Shown: positions 884-31,187 of the stretch, piece after piece
Position numbering within the stretch: the stretch's first letter is position 1
Layout of the letters: each line of letters begins with the position of its first letter
Origin: a virus
Taxonomy: Duplodnaviria; Heunggongvirae; Uroviricota; Caudoviricetes
Length of the DNA: 34,933 nt
Strand: one strand, 5' to 3'
Virus record (IMG/VR): IMGVR_UViG_2778261229_000002
Location: 1 to 34,933 of that record
Program-made: the position numbers and the translations under genes
Notes under the pieces: generated by a model
The model's input: the letters and a program-made list of their open reading frames with translations, nothing else
Told to the model about the DNA's origin: nothing
Databases searched by the model: none

Positions 884-900
884 ATTACCTTTATGGTAAT
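884..900. promoter_or_regulatory. Operator-like 17-bp palindrome ATTACCTTTATGGTAAT
   Basis: Perfect inverted half-sites ATTACC/GGTAAT with a 5-bp spacer. Same motif recurs at about ten intergenic sites (see findings). Confidence 0.5.
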
Positions 901-936
901 TTGCAAAACGTGCTGGATAGCAAACAAATTATTTGA

Positions 937-956
937 TACTGTATAAATATACAGTT
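937..956. promoter_or_regulatory. LexA (SOS) box TACTGTATAAATATACAGTT
   Basis: Matches the CTGT-N8-ACAG core of the E. coli LexA consensus TACTGTATATATATACAGTA. Lies about 20 bp upstream of the ATG at 976. Confidence 0.7.
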
Positions 957-975
957 ATTGCATGGAGAAGATAAG

Positions 976-1233
976 ATGCAGCGGTATCACTATCCACTGG
1001 AAGACGGATTTACCGAAAGGATTCACACGCCGGGAGGCGTCAGGTCACTGGTGGAGGGATCGCACTTGATGAAATTACTCCGGGATCTCGATAAGGATGG
1101 ATTTAATGTCGATGGCCCACTTGCCGAACTGACTGCACTGATTAACTACGTCACCAGCTCACAGATGTCTATGCAGGATCTGCAAACACATCTCGACTAT
1201 TGTGCCGAACAATTACGAAAACAAACCACATAA
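976..1233 (+). CDS. Small protein paralogous to the C-terminal domain of the adjacent antirepressor; candidate SOS-inducible mini-antirepressor
   Basis: ORF-track frame 958..1233; I prefer the ATG at 976 preceded by GGAGAAG. Block HTPGGVRSLVEGSHLMKLLRDLDKDGFNVDGPLAELTALINYV...DLQTHLDY aligns by eye with [43 protein letters not shown]...DIQTHAEY in the 2692..3348 protein. Confidence 0.6.
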   Translation: MQRYHYPLEDGFTERIHTPGGVRSLVEGSHLMKLLRDLDKDGFNVDGPLAELTALINYVTSSQMSMQDLQTHLDYCAEQLRKQTT

Positions 1234-1255
1234 AGAAAAGGCCGCGAAAGCGGCC
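1232..1255 (-). terminator. Intrinsic terminator hairpin GGCCGCGAAAGCGGCC (T-run on the minus strand)
   Basis: Perfect 6-bp stem with 4-nt loop at 1240-1255. On the minus strand it is followed by TTTTCTTTATG, directly after the stop of the 1257..1763 gene. Confidence 0.5.
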
Positions 1256-1256
1256 A

Positions 1257-1763
1257 TTAACAGTCGTAAAATTCTGGGTCCCACAAACTTGCATCGCGCG
1301 GCATGGATTCTAACTTTTTCAGCCGCAAAATTCTGTCACACTCGACAACTAATTTTTGCTTCTGCTCGTCAATTTCTACTGTCTTATGCGCTGGTTCATC
1401 CCAATAATCCAGAAGGAAGGCATGGCGTTCAGATGTGACCAGATAAATCACATACACGTCACTGGTTGGGATCTTTTTATGCTTGTTAGTGGTCTTGTCT
1501 TTCTTCCCAGACGCCCAGTTTTTCCAGCATTGTTCCGTACCGCTCTCACCAAACTTGTCAGTATAGTTTCCGATGTTTAAGTGAACGTGGCGTATGTGAT
1601 ATTCCAGCATCTCTTTCGGTGGATCTCGAAACAGAGTGTCCTTTCCGAAATCCTTATGATGACCGTAGCGCCAGTGATCTATGAACGCGTTTTTGATAGG
1701 TATTAGCTCAGGGTCCTTCCCAAAAATTCCAGGGTGAACCAACCCCTGGAATTTATTCGGCAT
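1257..1763 (-). CDS. Hypothetical protein, 168 aa, His-rich (cargo cassette 1, distal gene)
   Basis: ORF-track frame 1257..1838; I prefer the internal Met (MPNKFQGLVHPG...) because the upstream gene stops at 1753, leaving a short gap. Contains YGHHKDFGKD...YHIRHVH. No family assignable from memory. Confidence 0.5.
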   Translation of the reverse strand: MPNKFQGLVHPGIFGKDPELIPIKNAFIDHWRYGHHKDFGKDTLFRDPPKEMLEYHIRHVHLNIGNYTDKFGESGTEQCWKNWASGKKDKTTNKHKKIPTSDVYVIYLVTSERHAFLLDYWDEPAHKTVEIDEQKQKLVVECDRILRLKKLESMPRDASLWDPEFYDC

Positions 1764-2268
1764 CGTCGTAGAGCTCCTGAGCCATGTCTTCAGCAGTGCG
1801 TGCAAACATCCTTCGAGAAATTGCATGCGATTTTTCAACAGACATCTTTGGTACTTCTCGCATTACAACCTCATGTGACGCTGTAGGCTTAAAAGATGAC
1901 TTATAATACCGCTTTATCATCTCAACTAATTGCTGCTTATCCTTGGAGCGTCCAGTTTCGATTAGCCTTGACTCGTAAGGTCGCATTATATTCGTTTGAC
2001 ATGAGGCACGATGAAGCTTATCTGCCAAGATTCCTTCAAAAGATGTGCCCCGGATTTTTAACAATGCCTCATGCTGGTCGTATTCAGTGATGAACATAAC
2101 CGGGTATTTTTGCTCAACTTCTTCATCATGAATCCTGATGGCATTGGCAGTTGCTATGGCAGCAGCATAAGCGGCTGCTTCAATCACCATCTTTTTCTCT
2201 TTTTCTTTTTCAGACTTTTTCAAGGTCAAGCGTCTATGCCTCATCGCTGCAACTCTCTTCGTGTTCAT
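1753..2268 (-). CDS. Hypothetical protein, 171 aa (cargo cassette 1, proximal gene)
   Basis: ORF-track frame 1753..2280 begins with TTG; I prefer the ATG at 2268 (MNTKRVAAMRHRR...) preceded by GGGGGTG. Basic/acidic low-complexity N-terminus (KKSEKEKEKK). No recognisable family. Confidence 0.5.
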   Translation of the reverse strand: MNTKRVAAMRHRRLTLKKSEKEKEKKMVIEAAAYAAAIATANAIRIHDEEVEQKYPVMFITEYDQHEALLKIRGTSFEGILADKLHRASCQTNIMRPYESRLIETGRSKDKQQLVEMIKRYYKSSFKPTASHEVVMREVPKMSVEKSHAISRRMFARTAEDMAQELYDDAE

Positions 2269-2279
2269 GGGCACCCCCA

Positions 2280-2327
2280 ACTACCTCTAGGGTAAACATT
2301 CTATCGAAAGTATACGCATACTGGCAA
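2280..2327 (-). promoter_or_regulatory. Promoter for cassette 1 (TTGCCA-18 bp-TAGAAT on the minus strand) with degenerate operator ACTACCTCTAGGGTAAA
   Basis: Reverse complement of 2298-2327 gives -35 TTGCCA and -10 TAGAAT with an 18-bp spacer. The operator-like palindrome at 2280-2296 sits over the predicted start site. Confidence 0.45.
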
Positions 2328-2376
2328 AAAAATAGGCAGGCATTTTCTGAAATGGGATCAATCAAACCACATAGGG

Positions 2377-2421
2377 TTGAAATAACGTGAGCTATGCATT
2401 TATTATTACCTTTACGGTAAA
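2377..2421 (+). promoter_or_regulatory. Rightward promoter (TTGAAA-18 bp-TATTAT) overlapped by operator ATTACCTTTACGGTAAA
   Basis: Hexamers at 2377-2382 and 2401-2406; operator at 2405-2421. Reads toward the structured leader and ant. Confidence 0.45.
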
Positions 2422-2511
2422 TTTACATCGCACTCCTCTTGTGCCATAGTAATCGGGCACTGGCAAAATCCAGTGCCGGGATTGGTCTCCCGGATTACTA
2501 AGTGGCGCATA

Positions 2512-2533
2512 CCACGCCAGACGTGGTTTTTTT
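2512..2533 (+). terminator. Intrinsic terminator CCACG-ccaga-CGTGG followed by TTTTTTT
   Basis: Hairpin at 2512-2526 plus a 7-T run, between the operator-controlled promoter and the ant start codon. Confidence 0.55.
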
Positions 2534-2691
2534 ATGCGTATAGCACAGTCATGCCAGAATTATGGTGGGCTGAATGGGGGTCCGAAAGGACGCCGGTACC
2601 ACTTAGGCCGGTAAGACCAACTCCGTTCAGTTCACCACCATCTGATTGGTCTCAGCGGTGGTGATGTAATTCGCTAAGTGGAGACGCCATC

Positions 2692-3348
2692 ATGAACGCT
2701 CAACTCATCCCCGTATTCAACGGCACTATATCTAACGAAACAGCCCTACTTTGTAATGCCCGCGATCTGCACGCTTTTTTAGGTGTTAAAAAGGTGTTTG
2801 CAGCATGGATTACAAATCGCATTTCAGAATACGAATTCATTGAAAATCAAGACTATATTTTGCTTTCCAATTTGGGAAAGCAAACATCTGGTAGAGGCGG
2901 CCACAACCGCAAAGAGTACCACCTCACCCTTGATACAGCCAAAGAGCTGGCGATGGTCGAGCGTAACGAAAAAGGTCGCCAGGTACGACGCTACTTCATT
3001 GAATGCGAGAAACGTTTAAGACAACAAGAAACAAAAGTGGAGAAGGTCTTGTCAGGCTTCATGCCAGCCATTATGGAGGCGATCAAGCTGGAAGACAAAA
3101 AAGAATACAGTGCCCCACTGAAGCCTGGCTACCGCAGTCTGATTCATTCTCCGTCTGGTGTTCTCGGCCTGACGGAGAACTCACTGCTGATGAATCTGCT
3201 GAACCAGTTACAGGAAGACGGGCACGACGTATCGGGCGCGGCGGCGGAGTTGACCACCATGTTCTGCTACATCGTCGGTGTGAGCAAATGCCTGCGTGAT
3301 ATCCAGACGCACGCGGAGTACATCAACGACAAAGCAGGGTTCTTCTGA
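2692..3348 (+). CDS. ant: Phage antirepressor (AntA/AntB-type N-terminal domain plus C-terminal domain)
   Basis: N-terminal block LIPVFNG...[35 protein letters not shown]...[33 protein letters not shown] matches the AntA/AntB antirepressor family as I remember it. GGAG lies 8 nt upstream of the ATG. Confidence 0.7.
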
Positions 3349-3356
3349 CAGAACGG

Positions 3357-3381
3357 AGGCACAGGGATGTGCCTTTAAAAT
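3357..3381 (+). terminator. Weak terminator-like hairpin AGGCACA-ggga-TGTGCCT followed by TTTAAAAT
   Basis: 7-bp stem immediately after the ant stop codon. The T-tract is short, so efficiency is uncertain. Confidence 0.35.
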
Positions 3382-3414
3382 AATCATTGGCGATGTGATG
3401 TAGATTCGCGTAAT

Positions 3415-3431
3415 ATTACCTTAAAGGTAAA
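3415..3431. promoter_or_regulatory. Operator-like palindrome ATTACCTTAAAGGTAAA
   Basis: Same motif family; lies 26 bp upstream of the ATG at 3457. Confidence 0.5.
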
Positions 3432-3456
3432 CCATGTGTTTACATGAGGAGGAGAT

Positions 3457-3666
3457 ATGGGATTTTGGTTCGCTCGTACAAAAACGAGGGATAATGCACC
3501 CAGCCCTCAGGCAAAAAATGCAGAAGTTCCGGCGTCAGCGCAGGTTAACAAGCGTGGTGGAGTATATATCTCATCACAGCAAATTTCTGAGCTTCCTGAG
3601 GTTAAGGAGATGCGTCGTCTCGCTGCTGCAATTGTTAAACAGGATCTTGCCACTGTAAGGAAGTAG
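3457..3666 (+). CDS. Hypothetical small protein, 69 aa (cargo cassette 2, first gene)
   Basis: Strong RBS GAGGAGGAG 3-11 nt upstream of the ATG. Stop TAG at 3664-3666 shares G3666 with the GTG start of the next gene. Confidence 0.55.
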   Translation: MGFWFARTKTRDNAPSPQAKNAEVPASAQVNKRGGVYISSQQISELPEVKEMRRLAAAIVKQDLATVRK

Positions 3667-4532
3667 TGTTGCTAGCTCTTCTAATTATCCCAATCCTGGT
3701 TAGCGGTTATATTATGATAACCGCTAACCAGTATCATTATTTCCGTTTATACCGACACGAAGGCCAGCTTCTTTATATGAAAGTAGCGGCACTAGGTACA
3801 TATTGCCTTGTTGCATCAGTAATAATTGCAGCCGCTATAAAATATAAATGGCCTGATTTTCACCTAGTTCACGATATGGTGGAAACTTTTAATGTAACAT
3901 CAAAACCAGAAACAGATAGAATTTACATGTGGCTGCTTCTTCTCTCAGCCACATCCATTTGCTTCTCTTTGTGTTATGTGTCTGTTGTGTGGGTGAAAGA
4001 TTTTCTTCTTGGTTGTTTTTATAAACGTGATATTTACGAGCAAAAAACAGAGGCAATGAAGGCCAGAGTACTGCGAAAAACTTACTCGCAAGGTTCTTTA
4101 GACTTACTATTGCTTGATGCTATTGAATCGGATCCTAAACGACCAATGTTGATTACTTTATCATCAAACAAAGTGTATGTTGGAATAATAAATGGTTCTG
4201 GTGAACCAACGGAAAATCAGGGTCCGCATCAGCACATATCTTTTGTTCCTTTAATGTCAGGATACAGGAACAAAGAAAACTTATCTGTCACATTCACTAA
4301 TGCTTATCCAGGAGAAATACAGGTCAAGCGGACTGCAGCAATAAGAGGAATTAGCAGAAAGAAAGTGCCAGGACTTGAGATCATGGTGTCTATTGACGAA
4401 ATAAGTTATATATCATGGTTTGATTTTGAAGTATATAAAGCAACAAATAACAAAGTAGAATCCAGGGGGCACGTTATTCGTGTTACCAAAAATGGAAGAA
4501 ATATATATCAAAGAAATAGCAAAAAAGAATAG
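3666..4532 (+). CDS. Hypothetical membrane protein, 288 aa, three N-terminal TM helices plus a soluble C-terminal domain of about 170 aa (cargo cassette 2)
   Basis: Hydrophobic segments LLALLIIPILVSGYIMI, VAALGTYCLVASVIIAAAI and IYMWLLLLSATSICFSLCYVSVVWV. Coding region is visibly AT-rich compared with flanking phage genes (by eye, not computed). Start could instead be the internal ATG about 40 nt downstream. Confidence 0.6.
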   Translation: MLLALLIIPILVSGYIMITANQYHYFRLYRHEGQLLYMKVAALGTYCLVASVIIAAAIKYKWPDFHLVHDMVETFNVTSKPETDRIYMWLLLLSATSICFSLCYVSVVWVKDFLLGCFYKRDIYEQKTEAMKARVLRKTYSQGSLDLLLLDAIESDPKRPMLITLSSNKVYVGIINGSGEPTENQGPHQHISFVPLMSGYRNKENLSVTFTNAYPGEIQVKRTAAIRGISRKKVPGLEIMVSIDEISYISWFDFEVYKATNNKVESRGHVIRVTKNGRNIYQRNSKKE

Positions 4533-4624: not shown

Positions 4625-4786
4625 ATGAAAAAAGCATTTGCTGCACTGTTCGTTTTGTTGTCTCTGGTAGCTTCAACTCAGGCCTTTGCCGGTCGTTGTC
4701 AGCACGACAGCGATACTGCCGCTGACGGCTCCCGCTGCGGTGGGCGTTCTGCGGATTCCCGCCCGGGCGGCGGTGGCATTCGTTAA
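4625..4786 (+). CDS. Small secreted peptide, 53 aa, with predicted signal peptide
   Basis: Translated by hand: MKKAFAALFVLLSLVASTQAFAGRCQHDSDTAADGSRCGGRSADSRPGGGGIR. Absent from the ORF track because it is under 60 aa. Candidate promoter TTGACG (4584-4589), 17 bp, TATAGA (4607-4612). No clear RBS. Confidence 0.4.
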   Translation: MKKAFAALFVLLSLVASTQAFAGRCQHDSDTAADGSRCGGRSADSRPGGGGIR

Positions 4787-4808
4787 AAACAAGGCCGCGA
4801 AAGCGGCC
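4784..4808 (-). terminator. Second copy of the GGCCGCGAAAGCGGCC terminator hairpin (T-run on the minus strand)
   Basis: Hairpin at 4793-4808; on the minus strand it is followed by TTGTTTTTAACG, directly after the stop of the 98-aa membrane-protein gene. Confidence 0.5.
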
Positions 4809-4809
4809 T

Positions 4810-4821
4810 GTGACATGTCAC
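4810..4821. repeat. 12-bp perfect palindrome GTGACATGTCAC (copy 1 of 3)
   Basis: Identical 12-mers at 4810-4821, 22023-22034 and 24324-24335. This copy overlaps the stop codon of the 4818..5114 gene. Confidence 0.6.
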
Positions 4822-5114
4822 GTTCCTTTTCTGAATGATAGCCGTTCGAAAAATGATGACATTCCACCGCAGACAATAGCAAAGATGATCCCACCAAAGA
4901 AGAGAAGGCCAGCCTGCCACCACTCCCACCGCCATACATCCACAGCACCAACCATACCAACAATCGCTCCAACAAATGGAATATAGCTCACGATGAAAGC
5001 AATGGGGGCTGCAATTATCCAGTGCAATCCCCACCATGATTCAAGCCCAGCCATAATTGCTGCCAACTGAAAAAGGCCAACGACGATATAAACAATGAAT
5101 CCTATCGCTTGCAT
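4818..5114 (-). CDS. Small integral membrane protein, 98 aa
   Basis: ORF track. At least three hydrophobic helices and a Trp-rich segment (VWRWEWWQ). Confidence 0.5.
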   Translation of the reverse strand: MQAIGFIVYIVVGLFQLAAIMAGLESWWGLHWIIAAPIAFIVSYIPFVGAIVGMVGAVDVWRWEWWQAGLLFFGGIIFAIVCGGMSSFFERLSFRKGT

Positions 5115-5126
5115 GTAGTCACCTAT

Positions 5127-5300
5127 TTACCCAGTAAAAATCAGAGGCCTCCCCTCAATAAGGCTTGCAACAAGAACTATTCCCTGCACAACAAAGATGA
5201 ACCAGCAAATAGCTTGAGTCTGAGGGTTAAGAAAATATTTGTAGCGGTCAATAAATAACAACCCACCAGAAATTATCACACTCAAAATAATTAAAAACAC
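5127..5300 (-). CDS. Small hydrophobic peptide, about 57 aa, two predicted TM helices
   Basis: Hand-translated from a GTG at 5298-5300 preceded by AGGAAG: ...FLIILSVIISGGLLFIDRYKYFLNPQTQAICWFIFVVQGIVLVASLIEGRPLIFTG. Under 60 aa, so not in the ORF track. Start codon is uncertain. Confidence 0.3.
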   Translation of the reverse strand: MFLIILSVIISGGLLFIDRYKYFLNPQTQAICWFIFVVQGIVLVASLIEGRPLIFTG

Positions 5301-21288: not shown

Positions 21289-21356
21289 ATCAATGACTCC
21301 GTACGCAATTAAATTATTACCAATTTAACCACATATGATTTATTTATCGTAGAATG

Positions 21357-21394
21357 TTGACATTTAACGCGTGAATTATTACCTTTCAGGTAAC
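21357..21394 (+). promoter_or_regulatory. TTGACA box plus operator ATTACCTTTCAGGTAAC upstream of the tRNA insert
   Basis: TTGACA at 21357-21362; operator palindrome at 21378-21394. I could not find a convincing -10 hexamer at correct spacing. Confidence 0.35.
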
Positions 21395-21715
21395 CAAAGA
21401 GCTCATTCTGGTTACTAACCTGACTGGCTTGTCGTTAAATTAAACAGGTGGAGTGAGCTTTTATTTTGAGCAGTACGGCGTATGGCACATGCGCCGATAG
21501 CGGTCTGGATACGTTTAAGGGGCACCCTCCCTTGCTCGGGCAAACGAACCAGGTAGCCGGAATGTGTAAGTCGAGCGGTTTTATTCCGCGCACGGGGATT
21601 CACCATCCCGGCGATTCGGTGTGACGCCTCGGAAGAGACGAGGGTACAACGATGAGAGCATTTATGGAGCCGCGACAAAGTGTGGCGCCTTAACAGGCTA
21701 AGTGCTCTCAGCGTT

Positions 21716-21792
21716 GTGGCATTAGCTCAGTTAGACAGAGCAACCGCCTTCTAAGCGGTTGGTCGCAGGTTCGAATCCTGCATGCCACGCCA
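21716..21792 (+). tRNA. tRNA-Arg (anticodon UCU), 77 nt, argU-like
   Basis: Cloverleaf folded by hand: acceptor GTGGCAT/ATGCCAC, D-stem GCTC/GAGC, anticodon stem ACCGC/GCGGT with loop CTTCTAA, T-arm GCAGG-TTCGAAT-CCTGC, discriminator G and encoded CCA. Anticodon loop and T-arm are identical to E. coli argU as I recall it. Confidence 0.85.
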
Positions 21793-28065: not shown

Positions 28066-28082
28066 ATTACCTAGCAGGTAAT
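28066..28082. promoter_or_regulatory. Operator-like palindrome ATTACCTAGCAGGTAAT
   Basis: Perfect half-sites; located between the P-like gene and the downstream nin-region genes. Confidence 0.5.
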
Positions 28083-30345: not shown

Positions 30346-30413
30346 ATATTCACCTATAAGGTAACAAAAATCAAGGATAGTTACCCATGAGGTGCATTTA
30401 CCTGTTGGGTAAT
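30346..30413. promoter_or_regulatory. OR-like divergent control region: three operator sites and a minus-strand promoter TTGATT-17 bp-GAATAT
   Basis: Operators TTCACCTATAAGGTAAC (30349-30365), AGTTACCCATGAGGTGC (30380-30396, degenerate) and TTTACCTGTTGGGTAAT (30397-30413). Promoter read on the minus strand from plus coordinates 30346-30374, with an operator in the spacer. Confidence 0.5.
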
Positions 30414-30467: not shown

Positions 30468-31052
30468 ATGAAAAGTATCCAGGACGTCCGCAGGCAAAAT
30501 CTCAACGACTTGATCGACCGTGAATTCAATGGTGTTCAGACGCGGATGGCTGAAAAACTTGGAACTCAGGCAAATCTGGTAAACCGCTGGGCTCTTGGCA
30601 AGAAGGTTATCGGCGACCAGGTTGCGCGAAAAATTGAAGCTGCCGCCAATAAACCCCGTAACTGGCTTGATATCGATCGCTCGCTTTCTCAGGAAGGTTT
30701 TCAGCCTGTCGGACCAAGCGACATTGGTCAACTGGCGGCTCACAACCTGGAACGCTGGATGAGCGAAAGCCGCGACCTTTCAACGCAGGGAAAACTTCAC
30801 CGCGCATCCGGCGTCGCCCAGGTAACAATCAGCCGCCTGTTAAACAATGAGGTCAGCGTTTCCATTTCCACCCTGGAGAATGTTGCATCCGCATTTGGGC
30901 GTCACGGATATGAATTACTGATTCACCCGCACGACCCCGCGACTATCAACTATGACCGCTCGCGCTACGCATTGTTACCTGAAACAGAGAAGGCAAAGAT
31001 CGAAAGTTACATTGAATTTGTCATCAACCAGAACGAAAAAAACAAACAATAA
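30468..31052 (+). CDS. Phage repressor with two tandem XRE-type HTH domains and no S24 peptidase domain, 194 aa
   Basis: Two HTH-like segments (QTRMAEKLGTQANLVNRWALGKK and LHRASGVAQVTISRLLNNEVSVS). No Ala-Gly/Ser-Lys autocleavage module visible. The opposite-strand ORF 30420..30743 is judged spurious. Confidence 0.65.
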   Translation: MKSIQDVRRQNLNDLIDREFNGVQTRMAEKLGTQANLVNRWALGKKVIGDQVARKIEAAANKPRNWLDIDRSLSQEGFQPVGPSDIGQLAAHNLERWMSESRDLSTQGKLHRASGVAQVTISRLLNNEVSVSISTLENVASAFGRHGYELLIHPHDPATINYDRSRYALLPETEKAKIESYIEFVINQNEKNKQ

Positions 31053-31108: not shown

Positions 31109-31187
31109 ATTACCTAACGGGTAATTTTTTTAACTCATATCTATTGACATCAAACCAGATACGCATAATTATTACCTCAACGGTAAC
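31109..31187 (+). promoter_or_regulatory. OL/PL-like region: operators ATTACCTAACGGGTAAT and ATTACCTCAACGGTAAC flanking a TTGACA box
   Basis: Operators at 31109-31125 and 31171-31187; TTGACA at 31144-31149 with an A/T-rich -10 candidate (CATAAT at 31164-31169). Reads into the exo/recT operon. Confidence 0.5.

Follow-up and report, generated by a model that had tools for sequence, protein, structure and literature searches.

A 34,933-nucleotide stretch of DNA from a virus of the class Caudoviricetes (IMG/VR record IMGVR_UViG_2778261229_000002, positions 1 to 34,933; from here on, the window) probably encodes a lysis-lysogeny switch with three layers of control: a repressor (Rep), a small antirepressor (small Ant, 85 amino acids) behind a LexA box, and a large antirepressor (Ant218, 218 amino acids) that is gated by RNA. 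We assign this reading a probability of about 0.7. The LexA/Ant/Rep switch is already known; its combination with a P1-type RNA-gated antirepressor that shares the effector domain is undescribed, and a search of the available literature did not find the paired arrangement of a small Ant and an RNA-gated Ant described. One repressor-binding domain would be deployed twice, once in response to the host DNA-damage signal and once under the control of a phage antisense RNA and the repressor. Many E. coli prophages have the combination, relatives in O157 and in further pathogenic strains among them.

Around the finding, the nearest DNA matches are the Uetakevirus temperate podophages phiV10, phiv142-3, TL-2011b, vB_EcoP_ZX5 (ZX5 below) and EC.W1-9, at 89-98% identity in a piecewise fashion. 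Because of these matches, and because the repressor genes of the window and of phiV10 show 100% identity, we take the window to be most of a phiV10/epsilon15-like prophage (genus Uetakevirus). The two antirepressor genes lie in a variable segment that separates the structural genes from the tail-fibre gene, a minus-strand gene ending near 782.

The small antirepressor and its LexA box

The small antirepressor gene occupies positions 976-1233 on the plus strand, with a Shine-Dalgarno sequence GGAG at 964-967 followed by an ATG at 976 and a frame of 85 codons. A preliminary description of this DNA, made from the letters alone, noted a near-consensus LexA (SOS) box directly in front of this open reading frame (ORF), and the box stands. 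The plus-strand sequence TACTGTATAAATATACAGTT at 937-956 has two mismatches to the 20-mer consensus, it is the only match in the window at up to three mismatches, and it is reached by none of 100 shuffles. Within it, a perfect CTGT-N8-ACAG core encloses an AT-rich spacer. We compared the region upstream of the small ant gene in eight related phages. In all eight the CTGT-N8-ACAG core is kept and its distance to the start codon is fixed, with spacers that vary. Two promoter-like hexamers and their spacing are also kept in the eight phages despite diverged spacer sequence. A consensus promoter scan calls no promoter for the small ant gene, and it is from this conservation that we propose a probable promoter at 914-942 on the plus strand, with a -35-like TGGATA (914-919), a 17-nucleotide spacer, and a -10-like TACTGT (937-942) inside the LexA box. 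Klebsiella relatives, such as phage ST512-KPC3phi13.3 (480-610 of the compared segment), have ahead of the small ant gene a LexA-like box with one mismatch, ATGT-N8-ACAG, and behind that gene a second small ORF.

Tblastn gives 88% identity between the small Ant and SPC32H_020 of Salmonella phage SPC32H, which carries the annotation "ant, anti-repressor protein". The sole PDB match of the small Ant below an E-value of 0.01 is 5D50 chain E ("Anti-repressor protein"), with an E-value of 3e-47 and residues 2-85 aligned to 3-86, and it matches PHROG 450 with an E-value of 2e-47. Pfam and NCBIfam provide no family for it; matches to DUF724 and UpsF fall far under their cut-offs and we take them as chance. 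The upstream region of the SPC32H ant gene aligns with that of the window, and its LexA box is equally far from the start codon. By these matches we identify the small gene as an SPC32H-type Ant, that is, as an already characterised antirepressor. Kim & Ryu (2013, J Virol 87:11775) and Kim et al. (2016, PNAS 113:E2480) are said to have characterised the SPC32H LexA/Ant/Rep switch experimentally and structurally. In the available passages of papers citing that work, the SOS/LexA-controlled antirepressor of these Salmonella phages is described as inactivating the repressor by protein-protein interaction; SPC32H Rep is described as binding DNA as a tetramer, and the Ant tetramer as binding two Rep dimers and breaking the Rep tetramer.

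The repressor and its predicted operators

Rep (194 amino acids, 30468-31052 on the plus strand) has two helix-turn-helix (HTH) motifs in Pfam, a strong HTH_3 at residues 106-147 and a weaker N-terminal HTH at residues 21-61, and the same Pfam scan finds no match to Peptidase_S24. Its gene is 100% identical to the putative repressor gene of phiV10 and to those of many E. coli relatives (in ZX5, over all 194 amino acids). In the PDB, Rep matches two entries named "Repressor", 5D50 chain A (E-value 4e-42) and 5D4Z (E-value 4e-20). Compared with SPC32H Rep it is 42% identical overall, with 54% in the N-terminal HTH region and 37.5% in the C-terminal half, which is the half that binds Ant. Between the E. 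coli and the Salmonella lineages, then, the small Ant is 88% identical and its target Rep 42%, and the operator core is unchanged. By these identities the antirepressor is much more constrained than the repressor that it binds.

As candidate operators we consider the motif TTACC-N5-GGTAA, to which the 17-bp palindrome at 2405-2421 belongs, and which also occurs on both sides of the SPC32H rep gene. With at most one mismatch, the motif is found 15 times in the window where 0.52 occurrences are expected. The copy at 603 is inside the tail-fibre gene and is probably due to chance, which leaves about 14 predicted operators, at 885, 2281 (one mismatch), 2406, 3416, 21379, 24213/24231, 28005/28067, 30013, 30350/30398 and 31110/31172. 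Their geometry is like that of repressor sites. At 2406, 3416, 21379 and 31172, the final two bases of a -10 hexamer are also the first two of the predicted operator. At 28067, and on the minus strand at 885, the predicted operator fills the spacer that separates a -35 from a -10 hexamer. Two groups of sites flank the rep gene: those at 30350-30412, between rep and a divergent cro-like gene (30350-30364 with one mismatch, and 30398-30412), and those at 31110-31186, at the promoter of the leftward operon (31110-31124 and 31172-31186, the second of which abuts TTGACA-17-CATAAT). Altogether the Rep sites look like a dispersed regulon and not like a single immunity region, and the list of operators amounts to a ready-made predicted Rep regulon for the phiV10/epsilon15-like group. 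The C1 operators of P1 are likewise dispersed.

One of these sites, ATTACCTTTATGGTAAT at 884-900, is an exact TTACC-N5-GGTAA in the stretch from which the minus-strand tail-fibre gene and the small ant gene diverge. The distance from this site downstream to the LexA box is 54 bp, both in the window and in the five relatives that have the exact operator, SPC32H included; phiV10 and TL-2011b have an operator with one mismatch at the equivalent position. On the minus strand the site is the spacer of TTGCAA-16-TATCTA. This geometry suits the ant promoter no better than it suits the divergent promoter of the tail-fibre gene, and either could be the promoter that Rep controls from here.

A large antirepressor that shares the small Ant domain

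The large antirepressor gene is at 2692-3348 on the plus strand. Ant218 starts with an AntA domain (residues 22-92, nucleotides 2755-2967; PF08346 at 91.8 bits, for a cut-off of 27) and ends with an Ant-type domain (residues 136-215, nucleotides 3097-3336). In a pairwise alignment without gaps, the small Ant matches residues 137-210 of Ant218 with 42% identity over 74 amino acids (E-value 7e-16). The same C-terminal domain matches 5D50 chain E (E-value 4.6e-14), PHROG 450 (E-value 4e-36), and a profile of the Ant family (E-value 1e-37). The preliminary description had read these parts correctly: the paralogy of the two proteins, the AntA type of the larger one, the double-HTH repressor with no S24 peptidase module, and the palindrome at 2405-2421 are all borne out.

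With the Ant-family profile, the C-terminal domain is found in the large Ant of the window, phiv142-3, EC.W1-9, TL-2011b, Tyrion, two Klebsiella phages and ZX5, with E-values between 1e-29 and 1e-39. An Ant-type C-terminal domain is present in the large Ant of each of the E. coli, Enterobacter and Klebsiella relatives that we examined, in a truncated form in the case of phiV10. SPC32H and epsilon15 have the small gene only, and the Salmonella lineage has no large Ant. Searching 1.84 billion representative sequences exhaustively with the profile returns just 60 members of the Ant family; the fused forms are recovered only by this search, as a word-indexed protein search gives only close stand-alone homologs. 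The 60 members are either stand-alone proteins of 80-95 amino acids or the C-terminal domain of proteins of 180-320 amino acids, and the N-terminal parts of the fused proteins are AntA, Bro-N or Phage_pRha.

The comparison of Ant218 with ORF4, the large Ant of ZX5, is a case of this modularity. Compared by eye on the printed sequences, the two proteins agree in their last ~80 residues, and their N-terminal domains are AntA in one and Bro-N in the other. The pattern points to a recent exchange of domains at the linker. Judging from these comparisons, the second tier is a real, conserved and modular part of the E. coli, Enterobacter and Klebsiella relatives.

Three side observations concern the large proteins. 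BLASTP aligns Ant218 and the ZX5 large Ant (1950-2645 of the compared segment) with 74% identity over the C-terminal 125 amino acids. In the phiV10 large Ant (2747-3426 of the compared segment) the Ant-type domain breaks off after ~33 residues, and a short separate ORF comes next; this suggests that the gene is disrupted. TL-2011b has a third copy, a protein of 192 amino acids on the opposite strand that ends in an Ant-type domain (4662-5240 of the compared segment).

A domain that occurs in both proteins does not have to bind Rep in both. It could be mainly an oligomerisation module, in which case the large protein would co-assemble with the small Ant and tune or antagonise it, or would use its N-terminal domain for a different, DNA-directed function instead of binding Rep. 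SPC32H Ant is a tetramer and paralogous domains could mix in oligomers, the residues that are invariant between the small and large classes could be core or oligomer contacts, and AntA, Bro-N and Rha N-terminal domains belong to families with poorly defined functions. Against this, the C-terminal domain stays constant while N-terminal domains are swapped, as expected if the C-terminal domain bears the specificity, and the one overexpression result with the same C-terminal domain goes the other way. According to the available passages of the ZX5 paper (PMC9782041), overexpression of ORF4 lowers lysogens from 1e9 to 1e6 (about 1000-fold), leaves total phage unchanged and reduces repressor transcripts; the Bro-N version thus promoted lytic growth and did not block it. 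We consider the oligomerisation account improbable, and continue with a Rep-binding role for the Ant218 C-terminal domain.

An isrK-C4 RNA module in front of ant218

Between the predicted operator at 2405-2421 and the ATG at 2692 we find two structured RNAs on the plus strand. The first is an isrK-type RNA at 2457-2533 (Rfam RF01394, 67.7 bits for a cut-off of 50, E-value 1e-12), and the second a C4-type antisense RNA at 2558-2642 (Rfam RF01695, 61.2 bits for a cut-off of 45, E-value 1e-9). The pair also scores above the Rfam gathering scores in phiV10, phiv142-3 and EC.W1-9, and C4 reaches 77-79 bits in the relatives. A terminator scan places an intrinsic terminator at 2511-2533, the 3' end of isrK. 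Upstream, a promoter scan predicts tandem promoters for the isrK-C4-ant transcript at 2377-2450. P-a is TTGAAA-18-TATTAT (2377-2406), with its -10 and +1 overlapped by the predicted operator at 2405-2421, and P-b is TTTACA-17-CATAGT with an upstream TG (2422-2450), which would set a start near 2457, where isrK begins. In eight aligned phages the operator and the hexamers of P-b change little or not at all.

The C4 RNA has exact antisense matches on both of its sides. In its predicted fold, the element b' CCACTTAG (2599-2606) sits in a hairpin loop and the element a' AGACCAA (2614-2620) is single-stranded. The eight nucleotides of b' are exactly complementary to CTAAGTGG, which occurs at 2498-2505 in isrK (b1) and again at 2674-2681 (b2). 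The seven nucleotides of a' are exactly complementary to TTGGTCT, which occurs at 2482-2488 in the isrK loop (a1) and again at 2646-2652 (a2). The downstream targets a2 and b2 lie in the ant leader (at 2646-2683, plus strand), where b2 overlaps the Shine-Dalgarno sequence GGAG of ant218 at 2680-2683.

These pairings are supported by covariation. For this analysis the alignment covers eight phages from the operator to the start of ant, and ZX5 was examined separately. The a element has three alleles, TTGGTCT, TTGGCGT (in phiV10, TL-2011b and ZX5) and TTGAGAC (in Kp4865-1), and in each phage a1, a' and a2 covary. For the a helix, a1:a' and a':a2 are paired in 100% of the cells, and four of the seven basepairs have changed on both sides across the three alleles. 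The b element has the alleles CTAAGTGG, CTACAAAGG and CTAAAAGG, and by eye b' matches in each phage. The formal count for the b helix is 53-74% of cells paired, a value lowered by alignment indels; the sequences of the individual phages are self-complementary. None of 500 shuffles reaches the covariation score of the whole a and b structure, and partners slid by one to three columns score far lower. Several of the aligned phages have identical Rep, so the a and b alleles vary independently of the repressor.

In its simplest form, the proposal for this locus was that the phage operator is the sole control on the full-length Ant and that the novelty is a LexA-driven mini-antirepressor. The operator at 2405-2421 is real, and so is the paralogy of the two proteins; the operator overlaps P-a, and the pair is conserved. 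The rest of that proposal does not stand, and we regard it as very improbable as a full account. The mini-antirepressor is already known as SPC32H Ant (88% identity, 5D50 chain E), and between the operator and the ant gene there are two RNAs with Rfam scores and covarying targets, such that the isrK terminator and a C4 RNA directed at the ribosome-binding site are to be added to the operator. The placement of the operator was also incomplete, since the motif is found in addition upstream of the small gene, at 884-900, 54 bp before the LexA box.

By its order and its targets, isrK-C4-ant218 is best described as a P1 immI-like module. A model of translational coupling, as for icd and orf45, was also considered for this lineage and dropped: between isrK and ant no upstream frame is conserved across eight phages, and the frame in Tyrion closes after four codons. 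The coupling step seems to be absent, and the ant ribosome-binding site itself would be the target of C4.

The allele pattern raises another account of the large antirepressor, which would place it outside the phage's own SOS induction. Ant218 would be a weapon against immunity, employed during infection or on related prophages in the same cell as are P22 Ant and P1 Ant, and C4 would only guard the lysogen against an incoming ant. C4 and the a and b elements have at least three alleles each among phages with identical Rep, as one would expect if there were a second immunity specificity, and the Salmonella relatives induce with the small Ant alone. Antirepressors that hit non-cognate repressors are documented, and Fels-1 FsoA, a precedent as a repressor-controlled homolog of LexA-controlled antirepressors, has no role in the induction of its own phage. 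The position of P-a, however, argues for a part in induction: the predicted Rep operator overlaps its -10 and +1, and inactivation of Rep should raise transcription of the operon during induction too. Moreover, the anti-immunity and induction roles are not mutually exclusive. As the sole role of Ant218, we find an anti-immunity function rather unlikely; in the three-layer reading it is one of two roles.

A proposed course of events

The three layers would work together as follows. In the lysogen, non-cleavable Rep (a tetramer in the SPC32H homolog) would sit on the dispersed TTACC-N5-GGTAA operators, and LexA on the 937-956 box would block the small ant promoter. Most transcripts of the isrK region would stop at the isrK terminator. 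Those that read through would produce C4, whose a' and b' would pair with a2 and b2 and mask the ribosome-binding site of ant218. After DNA damage LexA would be cleaved and the small Ant made. The small Ant, a tetramer by analogy with SPC32H, would bind Rep and dismantle the Rep tetramer, which would open the Rep-controlled promoters, P-a among them. The a1 and b1 sites of isrK would be decoys that titrate C4, and Ant218 would be synthesised only under strong derepression and read-through or when C4 is titrated. With the same Rep-binding domain and an exchangeable AntA N-terminal domain, Ant218 would then keep Rep off the DNA after LexA has recovered, as a positive feedback. On infection, Ant218 would be an anti-immunity factor against a resident Rep unless a matching C4 is present, and C4 would provide a second, sequence-specific immunity against expression of ant218.

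Two parts of this scheme we advance more tentatively, together at clearly less than even odds, for the E. coli, Enterobacter and Klebsiella branch of the epsilon15-like podophages: that the small and full-length antirepressors form a feed-forward and positive-feedback pair that locks induction, possibly with the Rep-binding domain in mixed tetramers, and that the RNA module is a second immunity specificity. An SOS antirepressor switch would then have gained a bipartite immunity like that of P1. If the second arm does feed back, this would account for the conversion of a brief SOS pulse into an irreversible decision in phages with a repressor that is not destroyed. If the module is a second immunity, it would explain the diversity of a and b alleles among phages with identical Rep, and it predicts which co-resident or incoming relatives can cross-induce.

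Several observations weigh against the scheme. Identity with SPC32H Rep is only 42% overall and 37.5% over the Ant-binding half, so the interface may differ; the C-terminal domain of Ant218 is only 42% identical to the small Ant. Binding of LexA to its box, of Rep to 884-900 and to 2405-2421, and of Ant218 to Rep, as well as the order of events, we infer from sequence. The ZX5 ORF4 result, as given in the available passages of that paper (PMC9782041), is an overexpression phenotype with a GST fusion and not a binding assay. The C-terminal domain is truncated in phiV10 and the Salmonella lineage lacks the large Ant, therefore the second tier is dispensable. Finally, Gifsy-1 lysogens express isrK and the C4-like RNA at high levels, therefore the promoter may not be tightly controlled by the repressor; and isrK, which is activating in Gifsy-1, may act in either direction here.

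Comparison with known systems

The closest relative of the SOS arm is SPC32H. It is of the same genus, its ant gene holds the same position, beside the tail-spike gene, the small Ant is 88% identical, and the LexA box is at the same distance; its Rep also has two HTH motifs and no S24 domain, and the TTACC-N5-GGTAA operator core is the same. SPC32H differs in that Rep is 42% identical, in that the large Ant, the isrK and C4 RNAs and the toxin cassette described below are missing, and in that its ant gene is directly followed by the structural genes. Through this orthology of Ant and Rep, the LexA-controlled antirepression suggested in the preliminary description gains a supported mechanism, whereas the Gifsy phages and coliphage 186 Tum, which were named there as models, are functional analogs and not relatives. 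Coliphage 186 Tum and N15 AntC do have an SOS box ahead of an antirepressor of a non-cleavable repressor, and they belong to other phage groups. We know of no sequence relationship of the small Ant to either of them, though no comparison aimed at one was made.

The closest parallel for the RNA arm is the immI region of P1 and P7 (c4 - icd - ant; Citron & Schuster 1990). There too the antirepressor gene is behind a C4 RNA, a' and b' pair with upstream a1 and b1 and with downstream a2 and b2 at the ribosome-binding site, and the a and b elements have allelic variants between related phages. Control of P1 Ant is dual, by the C1 repressor and by the C4 RNA, as we propose here for Rep and C4. Unlike P1, the window has no conserved icd-like ORF, and its b2 covers the Shine-Dalgarno sequence of ant itself. 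Ant218 is a protein that joins AntA to an SPC32H Ant domain, and the window phage, a podovirus, has in addition an Ant driven by the SOS response; P1 has none.

Gifsy-1 resembles the window in both arms. It has isrK, then a C4-like RNA (STnc1160), then an antirepressor-like gene, AnrP, and its isrK region also matches the Rfam family "c4-a1b1" ("a1, b1 targets of C4"). IsrK/AnrP can induce the Gifsy-1 prophage (Hershko-Shalev et al. 2016, PMC4825925). The same prophage encodes a repressor that is not cleavable, as well as a small antirepressor under LexA control (Lemire et al. 2011, PMC3121763). The orf45 coupling ORF of Gifsy-1 is not conserved in the lineage of the window, and AnrP has no detectable similarity to Ant218 (E-value 0.18). 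The small antirepressor of Gifsy-1 we assume to be STM2621.1n, which is beside a dinI homolog, and it has no similarity to AnrP (E-value 7.7). Gifsy-1 is thus an apt model as far as a presumed LexA-linked small antirepressor coexists with an isrK/C4-gated AnrP, and not as far as paralogy of the two is concerned. On the basis of that E-value of 7.7 we reject the idea that a shared-domain design is general. Because AnrP is unlike Ant218 and the presumed small antirepressor is unlike AnrP, the reuse of one domain in both arms appears to be specific to this phage group.

A close relative with data on a large Ant is ZX5. It has an identical Rep and the same LexA box, operators and small Ant gene, and it differs in the N-terminal domain of the large Ant, which is Bro-N instead of AntA. 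The ZX5 paper (PMC9782041) nowhere names LexA or SPC32H, and its available passages say nothing of the small Ant or of the RNAs.

Neighbouring genes

Between the two ant genes there is an inserted two-gene cassette on the minus strand (1257-2268), which is outside the proposed circuit. The gene at 1257-1766 encodes a protein of 169 amino acids, a homolog of which is annotated in RefSeq as a type II toxin-antitoxin toxin of the YafO family. The ORF of 171 amino acids upstream of it (1753-2268) is a possible antitoxin. The two proteins belong to PHROGs 1651 and 9503, of unknown function, and neither has a Pfam, NCBIfam or PADLOC match. The cassette promoter TTGCCA-18-TAGAAT (2327-2298) is followed by the operator-like site with one mismatch at 2281-2295. 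EC.W1-9 and some E. coli prophages have the cassette; phiV10, phiv142-3 and SPC32H do not.

Downstream of ant218, a further unit at 3388-4532 on the plus strand is predicted to be controlled by Rep. It has a promoter TTGGCG-17-TAATAT, an operator at 3415-3431, and two ORFs at 3457-3666 (69 amino acids) and 3666-4532 (288 amino acids), whose products belong to PHROGs 5739 and 3630, of unknown function. PADLOC reports no match for the genes of this operon or of the inserted cassette. By eye there is a hydrophobic N-terminus in this unit, and relatives hold other genes at this place (for instance DUF4760). The unit looks like a slot for variable cargo that would be expressed only when Rep is off.

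A last observation is far from the ant genes. In the region 21340-21789, a near-perfect promoter on the plus strand, TTGACA-17-AATTAT, is overlapped by the predicted Rep operator at 21379-21393. The protein genes of this region are on the minus strand, and the promoter faces a tRNA gene at 21716-21789, with an anticodon that we read as UCU (arginine). A phage tRNA controlled by the repressor would be unusual.

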